From contig JBGQJI010000026.1 in NCBI GenBank assembly GCA_041498975.1, positions 1 to 25,037 on the forward strand: a stretch of DNA of 25,037 nt, in the 5' to 3' direction. The position numbers were made by a program. Shown piece by piece: positions 12,001-25,037 of the stretch. Origin of the DNA: Candidatus Methylomirabilis sp. GTDB taxonomy: Bacteria > Methylomirabilota > Methylomirabilia > Methylomirabilales > Methylomirabilaceae. Each line of letters begins with the position of its first letter. The first letter of the stretch is position 1.

Positions 12001-15000
12001 CCGCGGCCACTGGCGCCAAGCCTTTCAACAATCGCCACCTTTATCCCAGGACAGTCCCGCAGCTTCCTGCAGATCGTACACCAAGGTGGGCCTGGAGGCA
12101 ATTCTTTAGCGGTTCCGCCCTGATTCGACTTGACAGGCATTGAGGCTTTCTGCTATACAGGCTGGTAGATAGAGGCGATGGAGTTCGTCGCGTAAACTAT
12201 CCCGACGTGATACTCGGGATTGATAACTCCTACTGAAGCGTTCCTTTGGTAGGAGTTTTTGTTTTTCGAGGGGTTGGTCAGAATGGATGGCGGTGCCAAG
12301 GCAGCTCGTTCCAAATCCGTGAGCTACTTCGAGCTGCTGGACGCGTTCAAGGAGGAAGGCTGCCCGGTCTGCCGACTCCTGCTCAAGTGGAGTCGCTTAT
12401 ACCTAGACTCGCTCTTTTACGAATACGTCAATGACGTCGGGGTCCGCAGCCGCCTTCGTGATTCTCATGGCTTCTGCAACTGGCACACCTGGATGGCTGC
12501 CAGCATTGACAACAGCCAGTCGGGGATCGCCATCATCTACGAACACCTGCTCAAGGATCAAATTGAGAGGTTTCAGGACGCACTGAGGTTCATCAAGCCT
12601 AGGTATTGGTGGGGGCGACTCAGGGGAAAGTGGTTCCGAGTCAAGGGCAAGCCACCGATTTTCGCTCAACGGAATCAAAGATCACCATGCCCGGCATGCG
12701 AGCGCCTGGATCAGTTCTTTGAACCTGACCTGACCGACACGCTCCTGTCCTCTTTGGCCGACCCGGAGTTCGCCGACGGCTTCGTCGTTTCCTTCGGCCT
12801 CTGCCTGCCTCACCTCTACAACACCATGGTCACAGGCCAAGAGCATCCCAATCTTCCCCTTCTCATGGAGCTTCAACTGAAGAAATTGGGAACGCTTCGC
12901 GGTGAACTCGGTGAATACATCCGGAAATTAGATTACCGGTTCATGGCCGAACCGCGCGGAGAAGAGGCCACTTCCTGGCGACGCGTCATGGAGCTATTCG
13001 TCGGCAAGCCAGAGGTTTTTGGCTCGGACCGCCGGACGTGGGACACGACAGCGGGCCGACAGCCAACGCCATCATCCACAACGCCCCTCCAAGGTCAGGG
13101 TCTGGGACCGGCCAAGAGGAAGGGGGAAAAGGCTGAACAGTTCCGCAAGGACCTTCTGCCCCCGCGCAAAGGGATGTGGGAGGGTTCTTGAAAGTGCCTT
13201 CCTTCACACCGACAACAAGGAGCTCCTGTGGAGAACGCATGGATTGGAATGGTGATGGGCCTGCTGATCCTTCTGGCAAGCATGGCCTCGGTGGAACTGG
13301 GGATCTCGGTCGCCCTGATCGAGATCGGTTTTGGCATCGTCGCCGGGAACTTTTTGGGTCTGCACTCCACCCCATGGATCGACTTTCTGGCCAGCTTCGC
13401 CAGCATCGTGCTGACCTTCCTGGCCGGCGCCGAGGTCGATCCCGACCTCATGCGGGAGAAGCTGAAAGAAAGCGCCCTTATCGGTGGACTCTCCTTCCTT
13501 CTGCCGTTCTTTGGAACGTGGGCCTTTTGCTACCTCGTTGTGGGCTGGACCAAGGCGGCATCGCAAATCGCTGGCACCGCACTTTCGACCACCTCGCTCG
13601 CCGTGGTCTATGCCGTGCTGGTCGAGACGGGACTCACCAACGCGCCGATTGGCAAACTGATCATGGCATCAACGTTCGTAACAGACTTTGGAACCGCGCT
13701 CGCCTTGAGCCTCCTGTTCATCCGGCCTACCTGGTGGATCGTCCCATTCATCCTAGTCTCTGCAGCGTTGATCGTCATCATGCCCCGAATGAAACCCTGG
13801 TTCTTTTCGCGCTACGGCAAACGAGTCATCGAGCCCGAAATTAAAGGCGCCTTTGCCGCGCTTCTTGTCTTGATGTACTTCGCTCATCTGGCTGAAAGCC
13901 ATGCTGTCCTGCCGGCCTTCATCCTCGGCCTGGCGGTCGCGAAGATTTTTCACAGCCACAGAGAGGAACAACGGCGCTTCCGAATCGTGACCTTTGCCAT
14001 GCTGACGCCGTTCTTTTTTACCAAGTCCGGGATGAACGTGTCATTGGGTCTCGTGTGGGCCAACACCGGGCTACTGCTGATGCTACTTGCAGTGAAGCAA
14101 ATCACGAAGTTCATCGGCGTTTACCCGTTTGCGAAACGTTATGTCGCGGAACACGCGATGTACACCACCCTCCTGATGAGCACGGGCCTAACCTTTGGCA
14201 CCATCGCTTCGCTTTTCGGGCTGAACGCCGGCATCCTCACCAAAGCACAGTTCTCAGTTCTGGTCACGGTCGTCATCCTGAGCGCCATTATTCCCACAAT
14301 GATTGCCCAGCGCTATTTCGATCCCAGACGTCCCCTCAAACGGGCCGAGGAAGCGCCAAGGGCTGCTATGATTAGGCCCCCTCAACTGCTCGAGGAAAAA
14401 GGGGCGTAAATGTACCAGAGGATCCTCGTCGCCTACGACGGCTCCGAGGGCTCGAAGAAGGCCCTTCGAGCCGGCATTAAGCTGGCCAAGCTGCTGGAGG
14501 TGGACTTGTATTCGATTTCTGTAGCGGAGGGGCTTCCCTACTTTGCCGCGACCGTGGGCGAGGTCGAAGAGGTCAAGGACGACGTCGAGGCGTTTTTCAA
14601 GAAGATCACCAAGGAGGCCTGGGACGAGGCAGCGCTTCAGGGCGTGAACCTCCACACAACGGTCCTCCCCGGCCACGAGGTGGAGACCATCATCACCTTC
14701 GCGAAGGAAGGCCGGTTTGATCTATTGATCGTCGGATTCGTGGGTCATTCCAATGTGTTCGGGCGCATTATGGGAGGCACCACCCAAAACCTGAGCCGAC
14801 TGTCTCCCTGCACGGTGATGATCGTCAAATAGAACCGATCCAGGGAACACCTCATGCTGATGTGGGTGAAGAATGAGGGGAGATAGATGCCAATTGATAG
14901 GCCATGGCTGCTATTTTCCGAGATTGCTATCAATCTTGAGCAAGACGAATCGGGTGTCTACGAGTTAGGGAACAGGACTGGCAGTGTCATATACCTAGGG

Positions 15001-24000: not shown

Positions 24001-25037
24001 GCAGACTGCCGCGAAGGTGCGCGATCTGGGGGAGCTTGCCCAGGCTCACGCGCGGGCTGTCGAGCGCTGGGCGGGCATGCGCGGTTTGGCATTGCCGCGA
24101 GAAGAGCCACCCCCTCCCCTTCGAAGCCGGCTCTTGAAGTCCCCTGAGCGTGGTGAGGGCAACCATTGATGGGGAGGATGATGGAATTCACCAATCATCA
24201 TAGTGTAGGTAGCGGGGCGGACTTGCAAGACCGTTTGGGACGAACCCGTGATGAGCTACTTAATATTCTCGACACTATCGGATCATTGGTCGATAAGGCG
24301 GGATTGCCGCCCTACCCAGCTTTAGCGGCTGCGGATCGACTCCGCCACAACAGGTTCGACATCGTCGTCCTGGGCCAGTACAAACGGGGGAAGACGACCT
24401 TCATCAATGCCCTCCTTGGTGAGGACCTCCTTCCCACCGCCATCGTCCCATTGACCAATATCGCCACGCGGGTGCGCCACGCGACCCTCCCGTCTGCGCG
24501 CGTGACCTTTCTGGACGGGCGGTTTCAGGAGATCTCACTTCAAGAGCTAGCGCTCTACACCACGGAGAAAGGCAACCCCGGTAACGCCAAGAGGGTGCTC
24601 CTGGTGGAGGTCGAGTTCCCCGCGACCGCCCTTCGGGACGGGACGATGGTCACGGACACGCCCGGAATCGCCTCGATCTTCGAGCAGAACACCCGGGCGG
24701 CGATGGAGTATATCCCCCAGGCAGACGCCGCGATCTTCCTGGTGAATGCGGACCCGCCGATCAGCGAGGCGGAACGGGCCTTCCTCAAAGAGGTTCGCCC
24801 GTATGTGGCAAAGCTCTTCTTTGTGCAAAACAAGATCGACCAGGTGAGTCCGGAGGATCAAGAAGAGTCCCTTGCTTTTACGCGTACCGTAATCGAAGAG
24901 ACAATGGGCGAAGGCGAGATCGTCATCTACCCCGTCTCGGCTCGCTTGGCCCTGGAAGCCAAGCTGGCACAAGACGCGACAAAGCTTGGCCTAAGCCGAT
25001 TCGACCAGTTCGAGCGGGATCTCCATGGTTTTCTCCA

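Follow-up and report, generated by a model that had tools for sequence, protein, structure and literature searches.

It was as riboswitch cargo that the CrcB/Fluc fluoride channel and the CLC-F antiporters first came to be recognised. In the crcB riboswitch of Bacillus cereus a full-length aptamer carries a terminator hairpin on its 3' strand and acts as a transcriptional ON switch; the locus described here is built alike, but its cargo lacks CrcB and CLC-F and two switches stand in series. The FRM fluoride operon of Enterobacter cloacae has the order ppaC-uspA-eno-gpmA-crcB-orf5249 and resembles our locus in that a riboswitch drives an acquired island of several genes, among them an additional enolase and a universal stress protein (Usp) beside transport genes, whereas crcB, pyrophosphatase and phosphoglycerate mutase are missing from ours (PMC5533749). 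Their place is taken by a CPA2 antiporter, an MFS transporter, a PAP2 phosphatase, a dynamin-like GTPase, four DUF6062 proteins and a Cys-rich protein of 183 aa. Na+/H+ antiporters are the second commonest cargo of fluoride riboswitches and are taken to serve pH homeostasis (PMC11139923).

The window, i.e. the whole stretch of 25,037 nucleotides of Candidatus Methylomirabilis sp. that we analysed, contains a 13-kb island with the following features.

12130-12159, + strand: promoter-like site TTGACA-18 nt-TATACA, read from the sequence, ending 6 nt 5' of riboswitch 1
12165-12239, + strand: aptamer of fluoride riboswitch 1 (RF01734, 38.3 bits, E 1.9e-7, model positions 1-64 of 64)
12225-12267, + strand: predicted intrinsic terminator 1, a 14-pair stem (12225-12257) followed by TTTGTTTTT, its 5' arm being the 3' end of aptamer 1
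12283-13191, + strand: DUF6062 paralog a, first gene behind riboswitch 1 (PF19538, 69.2 bits)
13228-14409, + strand: NapA-like CPA2 cation/proton antiporter with a Thr-Asp (T-D) motif (PF00999 Na_H_Exchanger, 130.6 bits; best solved relative NapA, 4bwz)
14410-14832, + strand: Usp, beginning directly after the antiporter stop codon (PF00582, 91.8 bits)
14887-15234, + strand: small GIY-YIG / DUF7508 protein (PF24348, 30.9 bits; PF01541, 28.3 bits)
15249-15800, + strand: Cys-rich 183-aa protein with two CxxC motifs (no Pfam or NCBIfam match)
15823-16584, + strand: DUF6062 paralog b (PF19538, 43.4 bits)
16617-17354, + strand: DUF6062 paralog c, in tandem with paralog b (PF19538, 53.1 bits)
17480-17956, + strand: 158-aa protein (no family match; homolog in congener G051)
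17970-18042, + strand: aptamer of fluoride riboswitch 2 (RF01734, 43.3 bits, E 4.3e-9, full length)
18029-18072, + strand: predicted terminator 2, a stem at about 18029-18063 followed by TTTTCTTTT, overlapping the 3' end of aptamer 2
18079-18474, + strand: TPR protein (TPR families, Pfam)
18671-19960, + strand: second enolase (Enolase_C, 400 bits; TIGR01060, 630 bits)
19975-21675, + strand: MFS transporter with an N-terminal zinc-ribbon and HEAT part (MFS_1, 115 bits; HEAT_2, 45.6 bits; weak DZR)
21545-22747, + strand: HEAT-repeat protein (HEAT_2, 71.9 bits; HEAT_PBS, 63.8 bits), true start uncertain owing to its overlap with the end of the MFS gene
22782-23360, + strand: PAP2 phosphatase similar to undecaprenyl-diphosphatase (PF01569, 72.1 bits; NF047884, 59 bits, under its cut-off)
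23357-24169, + strand: DUF6062 paralog d (PF19538, 37.0 bits), its ATG overlapping the PAP2 stop codon (ATGA), as read from the sequence
24169-25037, + strand, running off the window end: dynamin-like GTPase (Dynamin_N, 87.8 bits), its ATG overlapping the stop codon of paralog d (TGATG)

Both aptamers exceed the gathering score of RF01734 (34 bits) over the full model, and all four DUF6062 ORFs lie above the curated cut-off of PF19538 (27 bits), so that Rfam and Pfam agree with the earlier note that two fluoride riboswitches head genes including four DUF6062 paralogs. These are the only two RF01734 matches found by Rfam in the whole assembly and the only four DUF6062 copies found in the genome by profile search; the other copy of the enolase is located on contig C6. 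The promoter-like site is absent from our consensus scan because its second hexamer ends in A, and for terminator 2 the scan listed a stem at 18047-18063 with a T-rich tail, the longer pairing having been read from the sequence. At both sites stem overlap and T-runs couple the expression platform to the 3' strand of the aptamer, and both riboswitches, which follow each other in series inside one same-strand gene array, are predicted transcriptional ON switches: binding of fluoride by the aptamer would sequester the 5' arm of the terminator and allow the downstream genes to be transcribed.

We consider it reasonably probable that the window holds a fluoride-response island in which the CPA antiporter is the core of a response without CrcB and DUF6062 is an autonomous, facultative accessory metalloprotein.

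DUF6062 is a true fluoride-riboswitch cargo, and the support for this is stronger than first counted. The earlier count of 29 DUF6062 loci (+-1.5 kb), with a gene-strand riboswitch at Rfam level in 14 (13 upstream, 1 downstream) and a CPA gene after DUF6062 in 8 of these 14, could be reproduced. With flanks of +-6 kb and our own covariance model (R1), 33 of 59 loci of the phylum, one per genome, were found to have an upstream riboswitch on the strand of the gene, always at E <= 2.6e-9 and in 22 of them within 420 nt of the gene; counts across related genomes are not independent. The Rfam gathering score is also reached in 20 of the 33, six score 22-32 bits and thus under the cut-off, and seven, to which Rfam was not applied, were called by R1. 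In relatives of genus g2 the aptamer is a variant with Rfam scores of just 22-32 bits. As a background rate, 53 riboswitch matches occur in 151 genomes of several Mb each.

Outside the phylum, we sampled 80 loci from Chloroflexota, Aerophobota, Clostridia, Omnitrophota, Ignavibacteriota, Armatimonadota, Sumerlaeota, UBP3 and Thermotogota. A riboswitch at Rfam gathering level lies upstream on the gene strand in 17, and seven more have one directly upstream by R1 only, below the Rfam cut-off (24/80 in total). On the tree of 161 family copies the riboswitch label changes at least 15-21 times, indicating that the link between riboswitch and DUF6062 arose or was kept many times. There are also many DUF6062 genes with no riboswitch, namely at 26 of the 59 loci in the phylum and at 56-63 of the 80 outside it. 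They include four Chloroflexota loci with a sortase, a TrmA-like methyltransferase and DUF6062, and genus g62, where a Mo-oxidoreductase and a 98-aa ORF accompany DUF6062. That roughly every second locus has no riboswitch, and that these loci lie in such unrelated contexts, suggests that the basic job of DUF6062 is not specific to fluoride. It could also be taken to mean that DUF6062 is a passenger of mobile fluoride islands, unrelated to fluoride physiology, and the island is indeed missing from all 19 congeners and has a G+C content slightly below that of its left flank; riboswitch 1 is found at the equivalent genomic place in congeners G064 and G065. Yet in at least eight phyla and many separate clades of the tree a riboswitch is followed directly by DUF6062, either as the first gene or as the only one, and it is the sole gene behind the switch in five outside loci (L096, L098, L099, L101 and L130), where the contig stops or the next gene is oppositely oriented. 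One would not expect to find a passenger as sole cargo, and we regard this explanation as extremely improbable.

The claim that the genome has no CrcB or CLC gene stands, with no match for PF02537 (CrcB) or PF00654 (CLC) in an assembly that is 84.9% complete; the same profile searches found CrcB and CLC in 11 and 12 of 14 known genomes, respectively. With this incompleteness, the organism may have a crcB or CLC-F gene that the assembly lacks, and the island might then be an ordinary accessory regulon whose exporter lies in an assembly gap. The fragmentation into 241 contigs would fit, as would the presence of CrcB in 10 and of CLC in 5 of the 19 congeners, one of which (G060) has a small contig with a riboswitch, a Metallophos gene, a TPR gene and then CrcB. 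But neither family is found in 19 genomes of the phylum that have DUF6062, among them 12 that are 91-100% complete, nor in nine of the genomes in which a riboswitch leads to a CPA gene. Furthermore, both riboswitches of our genome are in the window, and in sampled CrcB-bearing relatives the riboswitch often precedes CrcB. A missed exporter is therefore unlikely in our view.

Across the phylum, the presence of DUF6062 as such is unrelated to that of CrcB (27/60 genomes versus 87/191). In agreement with the earlier note, riboswitch-controlled DUF6062 is linked to genomes without CrcB, being found in 17 of 18 genomes that lack both CrcB and CLC but in 5 of 27 with CrcB, a contrast that is overstated because the genomes are related to one another. 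This contrast would also suit the proposal of the earlier note, in which DUF6062 is the dedicated cytoplasmic partner of fluoride-induced CPA or MFS transporters and forms with them the resistance module of CrcB-less lineages. The gene order is in its favour as well: DUF6062, CPA and Usp recur in this order, 20 of the 33 riboswitch-bearing loci in the phylum include a same-strand CPA gene, and DUF6062 stands directly before CPA in 22 copies and before MFS in about nine. The five loci with DUF6062 as sole cargo and the presence of CPA in only 5 of the 80 outside loci speak against a specific partnership. Nor does DUF6062 seem to define a CrcB-independent module, since it shares operons with CrcB in six genomes of the phylum and in five outside loci, and 10 of 14 other riboswitch loci that we retrieved have CPA behind the switch and no DUF6062. 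The single 671-aa fusion of DUF6062 and CPA reported earlier (L042) is doubtful, as its frame covers only the first half of CPA, the rest being encoded in a different one, and no such fusion was seen among longer homologs or the best 150 representatives. Thus, pairing with CPA is not obligatory, the antiporter would not need DUF6062 as a subunit, and we find a dedicated partnership distinctly unlikely.

In the reading that we favour, CPA is the core and DUF6062 an accessory. The constant element in the phylum would be the NapA-like CPA2 antiporter together with Usp, with or without DUF6062 and chiefly in genomes lacking CrcB and CLC; in the ten genomes with CPA but no DUF6062 behind the riboswitch, CrcB is found in none and nine have no CLC match. 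The antiporter matches NapA of Thermus thermophilus over residues 16-356 (4bwz, E 6.6e-21) and, at E 2.1e-8, KefC (8bxg). An Asp-Asp pair in the ion site is generally regarded as the mark of the CPA2 family. Our antiporter has Thr-Asp opposite the 'DD' of the NapA IDDV motif (PDB 4bwz, 5bz2, 5bz3), the second Asp being invariant in 22 sequences, and like NapA it retains a Lys in the later membrane helices; it differs from NapA also in its low score with the NCBIfam CPA2 model (TIGR00932, 86.3 bits against a cut-off of 238.3) and in that its gene is under riboswitch control. Fluoride enters as HF, and how much of it accumulates is proportional to the pH gradient; borrowing from literature and chemistry, we therefore infer that the antiporter may limit the trapping of fluoride by reducing this gradient or the pH of the cytoplasm. 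It is also possible that CPA or MFS carries fluoride itself.

DUF6062 (about 5,300 clusters at 50% identity) is named in no paper of the literature we searched. It consists of an internal duplication of a helical module of about 90 residues, each with CPxC, 34 residues and CxxH, and hhalign aligns the N half to the C half with a probability of 97.3% (E 1.9e-11). The eight Cys/His residues are invariant in the four paralogs of the island and conserved in 159-161 of 161 family copies; this strongly suggests a metal site, or rather, given two modules, two predicted Cys3His sites, and the ligand set could hold Zn or an Fe-S cluster. AlphaFold2 predicts paralog a as all helical (pLDDT 83.7; 94.6 for a single module), and neither sequence nor fold searches matched it to a solved structure in the PDB, the best fold Z being 5.0 (whole protein) and 4.6 (module), with no zinc anti-sigma (ZAS) chain among the fold matches listed. 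Tandem DUF6062 genes occur in 10 of the 80 outside loci and in the window, and many proteins of 430-520 aa carry two DUF6062 stretches as fused doubles, from which we infer that DUF6062 probably acts as a pair of units, i.e. is probably dimeric.

Three Cys and one His ligand also occur in mitoNEET, a 3Cys-1His cluster protein, and in ZAS domains, which have the motif HxxxCxxC, and in both cases the modules or sites are small and helical; DUF6062 (CPxC-34-CxxH) differs from both in how its ligands are ordered and spaced. It lacks HxxxCxxC, and we do not assign it to either group. A regulatory role could be proposed, with DUF6062 as a Zn- or cluster-bearing switch that binds proteins in the manner of anti-sigma factors or partner switching and relays the fluoride signal to distant genes. 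Such a regulator would make sense of the loci where DUF6062 is the sole cargo, and the helical predicted metal modules, the multiple paralogs in each island and a fusion of a SpoIIAA-like domain to DUF6062 (P0232) would fit. Against it, this fusion is the only one among seven proteins scanned, no DNA-binding or sigma-binding family was detected with Pfam or NCBIfam, a sigma factor gene is next to DUF6062 in none of the annotated loci and the CxxC...CxxH order is the reverse of that in zinc anti-sigma domains. We find a regulator very unlikely.

As an accessory to the CPA-centred response, DUF6062 would be a soluble, all-helical and widespread riboswitch cargo, facultative and autonomous. Its paralogs directly precede CPA, MFS, enolase, CrcB or dynamin genes, and our best guess is that it may, dependent on its metal sites, partner with or protect proteins in the cytoplasm or at the membrane when fluoride causes stress. 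A bolder combination, which we regard as a long shot, would make the Thr-Asp CPA2 clade the core of exporter-independent fluoride tolerance and DUF6062 a new-fold sensor and switch of co-encoded clients. In riboswitch-bearing bacteria without Fluc and CLC-F, the antiporter would then act by collapse of the pH gradient or by fluoride carriage, and the paired 3Cys-1His metal or cluster modules would sense acidification or metal disturbance caused by fluoride and act on the antiporter, the MFS transporter, enolase and the dynamin-like GTPase, as a second layer at the protein level behind the RNA switch.

In our Methylomirabilota sample DUF6062 is as frequent a switch target as CrcB (18 of 41 riboswitch-bearing genomes versus 8 with CrcB behind a switch), it recurs in no fewer than eight further phyla, and many riboswitch-bearing genomes lack every known fluoride exporter and have a CPA2 antiporter behind the switch instead. 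This raises the questions of what role a helical protein with duplicated Cys3His sets plays during fluoride stress and whether cation/proton exchange can by itself replace fluoride export, which are relevant to fluoride toxicity, to the engineering of microbes for organofluorine chemistry and to the annotation of a large family without an assigned function. The Cys-rich 183-aa protein is a recurrent riboswitch cargo as well, with homologs at loci L037, L038, L040, L142, L174 and L192 and, directly behind the riboswitch, at L194.

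Rfam, gene and genome searches confirmed what the earlier note had seen on this contig, namely two fluoride riboswitches with DUF6062 (PF19538) and CPA antiporter genes as cargo, in a genome where CrcB and CLC, the known fluoride exporter families, are not found (no match to either in the assembly, which is 84.9% complete). Beyond these two, the Rfam search found no fluoride riboswitch in the whole 2.68-Mb assembly. Every gene from 12283 to the end of the window lies on the + strand, and the array is laid out as follows, with the four DUF6062 paralogs lettered a to d in order:

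Ending 6 nt before riboswitch 1: promoter-like site TTGACA-18-TATACA (sequence reading)
12165-12239, + strand: fluoride riboswitch 1, full-length, 38.3 bits in Rfam
12225-12257: terminator hairpin of riboswitch 1, its 5' arm being the aptamer 3' strand, then T-run TTTGTTTTT
Behind riboswitch 1, in order: DUF6062a, Na_H_Exchanger transporter (the CPA), Usp, small GIY-YIG/DUF7508 protein, Cys-rich 183-aa protein, DUF6062b, DUF6062c, 158-aa protein
17970-18042, + strand: fluoride riboswitch 2, full-length, 43.3 bits in Rfam
About 18029-18063: terminator hairpin of riboswitch 2, its 5' arm being the aptamer 3' strand, then T-run TTTTCTTTT
Behind riboswitch 2, in order: TPR, enolase, zinc-ribbon/HEAT/MFS transporter, HEAT protein, PAP2, DUF6062d, dynamin-like GTPase

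Both aptamer/terminator pairs are predicted to be of the classic transcriptional ON design, in which the fluoride-bound aptamer would keep the shared strand in its pseudoknot and so block the terminator. The start of Usp abuts the transporter stop codon, and the ATGA and TGATG overlaps between PAP2, DUF6062d and the dynamin gene suggest that these three are translationally coupled. No Pfam or NCBIfam family was found for the 183-aa and 158-aa proteins, and a second enolase gene lies elsewhere in the same genome.

This island has a slightly lower G+C content (0.55-0.59) than its flank (0.60-0.65), and from 12101 on it has almost no counterpart in the 19 genomes of the same genus, in none of which a genome search found DUF6062. 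Misbinning of the contig could be ruled out, since all 19 congeners show synteny with positions 1-10420, at 74-87% identity, which places the contig in the right genome. Riboswitch 1 is kept at the same genomic place in the congeners G064 and G065; in G064 it heads genes for a Metallophos phosphoesterase, an MFS transporter and a patatin-like protein, and in G060 the same riboswitch heads Metallophos, TPR and then CrcB. With a shared riboswitch followed by different genes, the site is an old fluoride locus at which the genus has exchanged the cargo genes. The possibility that a diverged DUF6062 comes first after the riboswitch in the congeners was considered and rejected, the gene there being a calcineurin-like phosphoesterase (Metallophos_2; L189:756-1469 in G064, L191:420-1145 in G060) that also occurs in the island of genus g2 (L040:8995-9816). 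As a separate observation on the window, two stretches at 8454-8540 and 2625-2751 (about 85 and about 125 nt) recur at 71-88% identity on numerous separate contigs, both in this genome and in its congeners, and look like small interspersed repeats.

DUF6062 was found in 60 of 251 genomes of the phylum. A recount of the 29 loci (+-1.5 kb) on which the riboswitch association had originally been based gave the same figures: in 14 the gene strand carries a riboswitch at Rfam level, which is upstream in 13 and downstream in one. We extended the sample to +-6 kb around the best DUF6062 match in all 59 other DUF6062 genomes and ran on it a covariance model of our own, built from 17 riboswitches already found. 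A riboswitch lay upstream on the gene strand in 33 of the 59 loci (all at E <= 2.6e-9), at a distance of 420 nt or less in 22 of these. Rfam scoring covered 26 of the 33, the other seven resting on our own model: 20 reached the gathering score and six scored 22-32 bits, being a variant aptamer of genus g2 and family f3 (genus g3). Two of the 26 loci with no upstream riboswitch, L078 and L093, lie on contigs that break off at most about 470 nt before the gene. Secondary paralogs, 22 in number and including b, c and d of the window, form a divergent clade of which 21 members sit in riboswitch operons.

The outside sample comprised 80 loci, mainly from Chloroflexota, the other groups being Aerophobota, Clostridia, Omnitrophota, Ignavibacteriota, Armatimonadota, Sumerlaeota, UBP3 and Thermotogota. 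Rfam was applied to the 29 loci with any match to our own model; 17 of the 80 have a riboswitch at the Rfam gathering score upstream on the gene strand, seven more have a sub-threshold match directly upstream by our own model only, and one has a riboswitch on the opposite strand. The remaining 55 show no match immediately upstream; among these, L105, L112 and L137 carry only a weak own-model match, below the Rfam cut-off, at 1.9-4.2 kb from the gene on the upstream side. Across a tree of 161 DUF6062 copies, at least 15-21 changes of the riboswitch label are required, and the background is 53 riboswitch matches in total in 151 sampled phylum genomes (the 41 riboswitch-bearing genomes counted in this sample include G216, an unpublished genome that contributes to this count alone), so that the association goes beyond chance. 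Membership of DUF6062 in the fluoride response, as the earlier note proposed, is thus strongly supported. It appears to be new in print: our literature search, outside which lay the gene lists of the key 2012 fluoride-riboswitch study, found the name DUF6062 in no paper, and no paper joining the fluoride riboswitch with Methylomirabilis.

The variant aptamer of the g2 relatives is 64 nt long, with CGCG/CGCG as P1 and an altered linker to P2. It scores 22-32 bits in Rfam against a cut-off of 34 and takes the position of the canonical switches, before DUF6062 or dynamin, at:

L052:6790-6853, - strand
L037:6802-6865, - strand
L041:5765-5828, + strand
L048:2600-2663, + strand
L038:3223-3286, + strand

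A different arrangement is seen at L060 (G198:C6:26296-38943), where a stretch of about 4.5 kb holds four fluoride riboswitches: one strand has a series of three, preceding MFS, CPA and DUF6062, and the fourth is divergent and precedes Usp.

The proposal that DUF6062 works with the CPA fared less well. In 20 of the 33 phylum riboswitch loci the same strand carries a homolog of the window CPA, the usual order being DUF6062, CPA, Usp. Outside the phylum a CPA is present in just 5 of 80 DUF6062 loci, and at L096, L098, L099, L101 and L130 DUF6062 is the sole gene behind the riboswitch, followed by a gene on the opposite strand or by the contig end. We also fetched 14 riboswitch loci for which the sampled genome has no DUF6062 at its switch; in ten of them the CPA (70-73% or 43-44% identical to that of the window) stands directly behind the riboswitch, and one more has the order riboswitch, dynamin, CPA, CrcB. 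Operons that hold DUF6062 together with CrcB occur as well: the two lie within 2.5 kb of each other in six genomes (G082, G121, G134, G162, G166, G211), and 5 of the 80 outside loci have a CrcB gene on the DUF6062 strand. Elsewhere DUF6062 directly precedes MFS, enolase or dynamin genes. The supposed 671-aa DUF6062-CPA fusion (L042) proved to be a locus where the CPA is split over two frames, and no such fusion was seen among longer homologs or among the best 150 representatives. DUF6062 and CPA are therefore only loosely paired: what stays constant is the CPA, with DUF6062 as an optional, self-standing accessory.

The distribution of exporters bears on the further claim that DUF6062 defines a CrcB-independent route of resistance. 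CrcB is present in 27 of the 60 DUF6062-bearing genomes versus 87 of the 191 others, so the presence of one is unrelated to that of the other. DUF6062 is under a riboswitch in 17 of the 18 other DUF6062 genomes without CrcB and CLC, in 11 of 14 CLC-only genomes and in 5 of the 27 with CrcB, where four of the five share the operon with CrcB. Riboswitch control of DUF6062 does track exporter absence, with figures inflated by relatedness, because genus g62 alone makes up about half of the CrcB-positive, switch-less cases. The ten genomes with a riboswitch-to-CPA locus and no DUF6062 have CrcB in none and no CLC match in nine, which indicates that riboswitches are common in phylum genomes without a known exporter. 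The common cargo of the exporter-less riboswitch genomes is the CPA, not DUF6062, and a route defined by DUF6062 is unsupported as it was put forward.

The best solved relative of the CPA is NapA (4bwz, E 6.6e-21), followed by KefC. In the alignment its Thr-Asp stands opposite the Asp-Asp of NapA, and D153 and K294 are invariant in 22 homologs; the corresponding NapA positions form the ion site. Because the key carboxylate is kept, the CPA is predicted most likely still to exchange a cation for protons. Fluoride enters cells as HF and accumulates according to the pH gradient, so a CPA importing protons in exchange for a cation would reduce fluoride trapping. A review (PMC11139923) describes Na+/H+ antiporters under fluoride switches as the second commonest cargo, with a role in pH homeostasis, and reports intracellular acidification as a cell adaptation to fluoride. 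At L043:7028-9643 (G091) a CPA and a dynamin-like gene share one 871-aa open frame, with a second short CPA match in another frame; either a genuine fusion or a frameshift from sequencing could account for this.

At loci without a riboswitch DUF6062 keeps other company. Four from Chloroflexota have the order sortase, TrmA-like methyltransferase, DUF6062, with frames that overlap or nearly abut, and in genus g62 the order is DUF1499, Mo-oxidoreductase, a 98-aa ORF, DUF6062 and BtpA. Such neighbours argue that the basic activity of DUF6062 is not confined to fluoride.

The four window paralogs share a mere 22-31% identity, and all keep CPxC, CxxH, CPxC and CxxH; 159-161 of 161 copies retain the eight Cys/His residues. 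Motif spacing is the same in the N and C halves, which are homologous (hhalign probability 97.3%, E 1.9e-11), and other conserved charged residues include E47 and an R-K-x-D-Y-R motif near the C-terminus. AlphaFold2 confidently predicts an all-helical structure (pLDDT 83.7 for the entire protein, 94.6 for a single module). Foldseek returned no PDB match at E <= 0.001 for the whole model (best E 1.2) and a best E of 2.5 for the single module. With VIA-align the best Z was 5.0 for the whole model, compared with 48,161 chains, and 4.6 for the module; for these predicted models we take the scores to be ordinary helical noise. The profile against PDB sequences reached E 0.047 at best, an ESM Atlas search returned solely DUF6062 clusters, Pfam gave only DUF6062 for each half at E <= 10, and NCBIfam had no match for the four paralogs.

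The family comprises 5,297 clusters (50% identity, E <= 0.001). About 36 of the best 150 representatives are 420-550 aa long with at least two matched stretches, and a Pfam scan of five long proteins confirmed a pair of DUF6062 stretches in four. A search of longer proteins returned no fused forms, and among the best 150 representatives these are only double-DUF6062 proteins and one SpoIIAA-like fusion. Tandem genes (10 of the 80 outside loci, and b and c in the window) together with the fused doubles suggest that two DUF6062 units act together. Overall, we think DUF6062 is somewhat more probably than otherwise a paired Cys3His putative metalloprotein that acts on other proteins, or protects them, during fluoride stress; that it would be a specific 'client partner' is a tentative idea that we rather doubt. 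The SpoIIAA-like fusion, P0232 (374 aa, N-terminal PF11964), hints at a partner-switching or regulatory setting.

Other recurrent cargo came to light at these switches. Dynamin-like GTPases are such a cargo in this phylum, present in the window (24169-25037) and at L038, L040, L047, L049, L051, L053, L054, L202 and L207, seven loci having the order riboswitch, dynamin, DUF6062; in G203 dynamin follows the riboswitch, and in G073 riboswitch, dynamin, CPA and CrcB follow one another. Our literature search found no paper joining the fluoride riboswitch with dynamin. The 183-aa protein (15249-15800) contains two CxxC motifs and belongs to no family of Pfam or NCBIfam. Fluoride operons of this and other phyla repeatedly include it, directly behind the riboswitch at L194 and also at L037, L038, L040, L142, L174 and L192, and it may be a second unstudied Cys-rich fluoride cargo. 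In the riboswitch-controlled MFS transporter (19975-21675) the N-terminal part has a zinc-ribbon-like CxxC pair and HEAT repeats, and the separate HEAT protein comes next; at L192, in the congener G051, a relative of just this N-terminal part precedes the dynamin gene.
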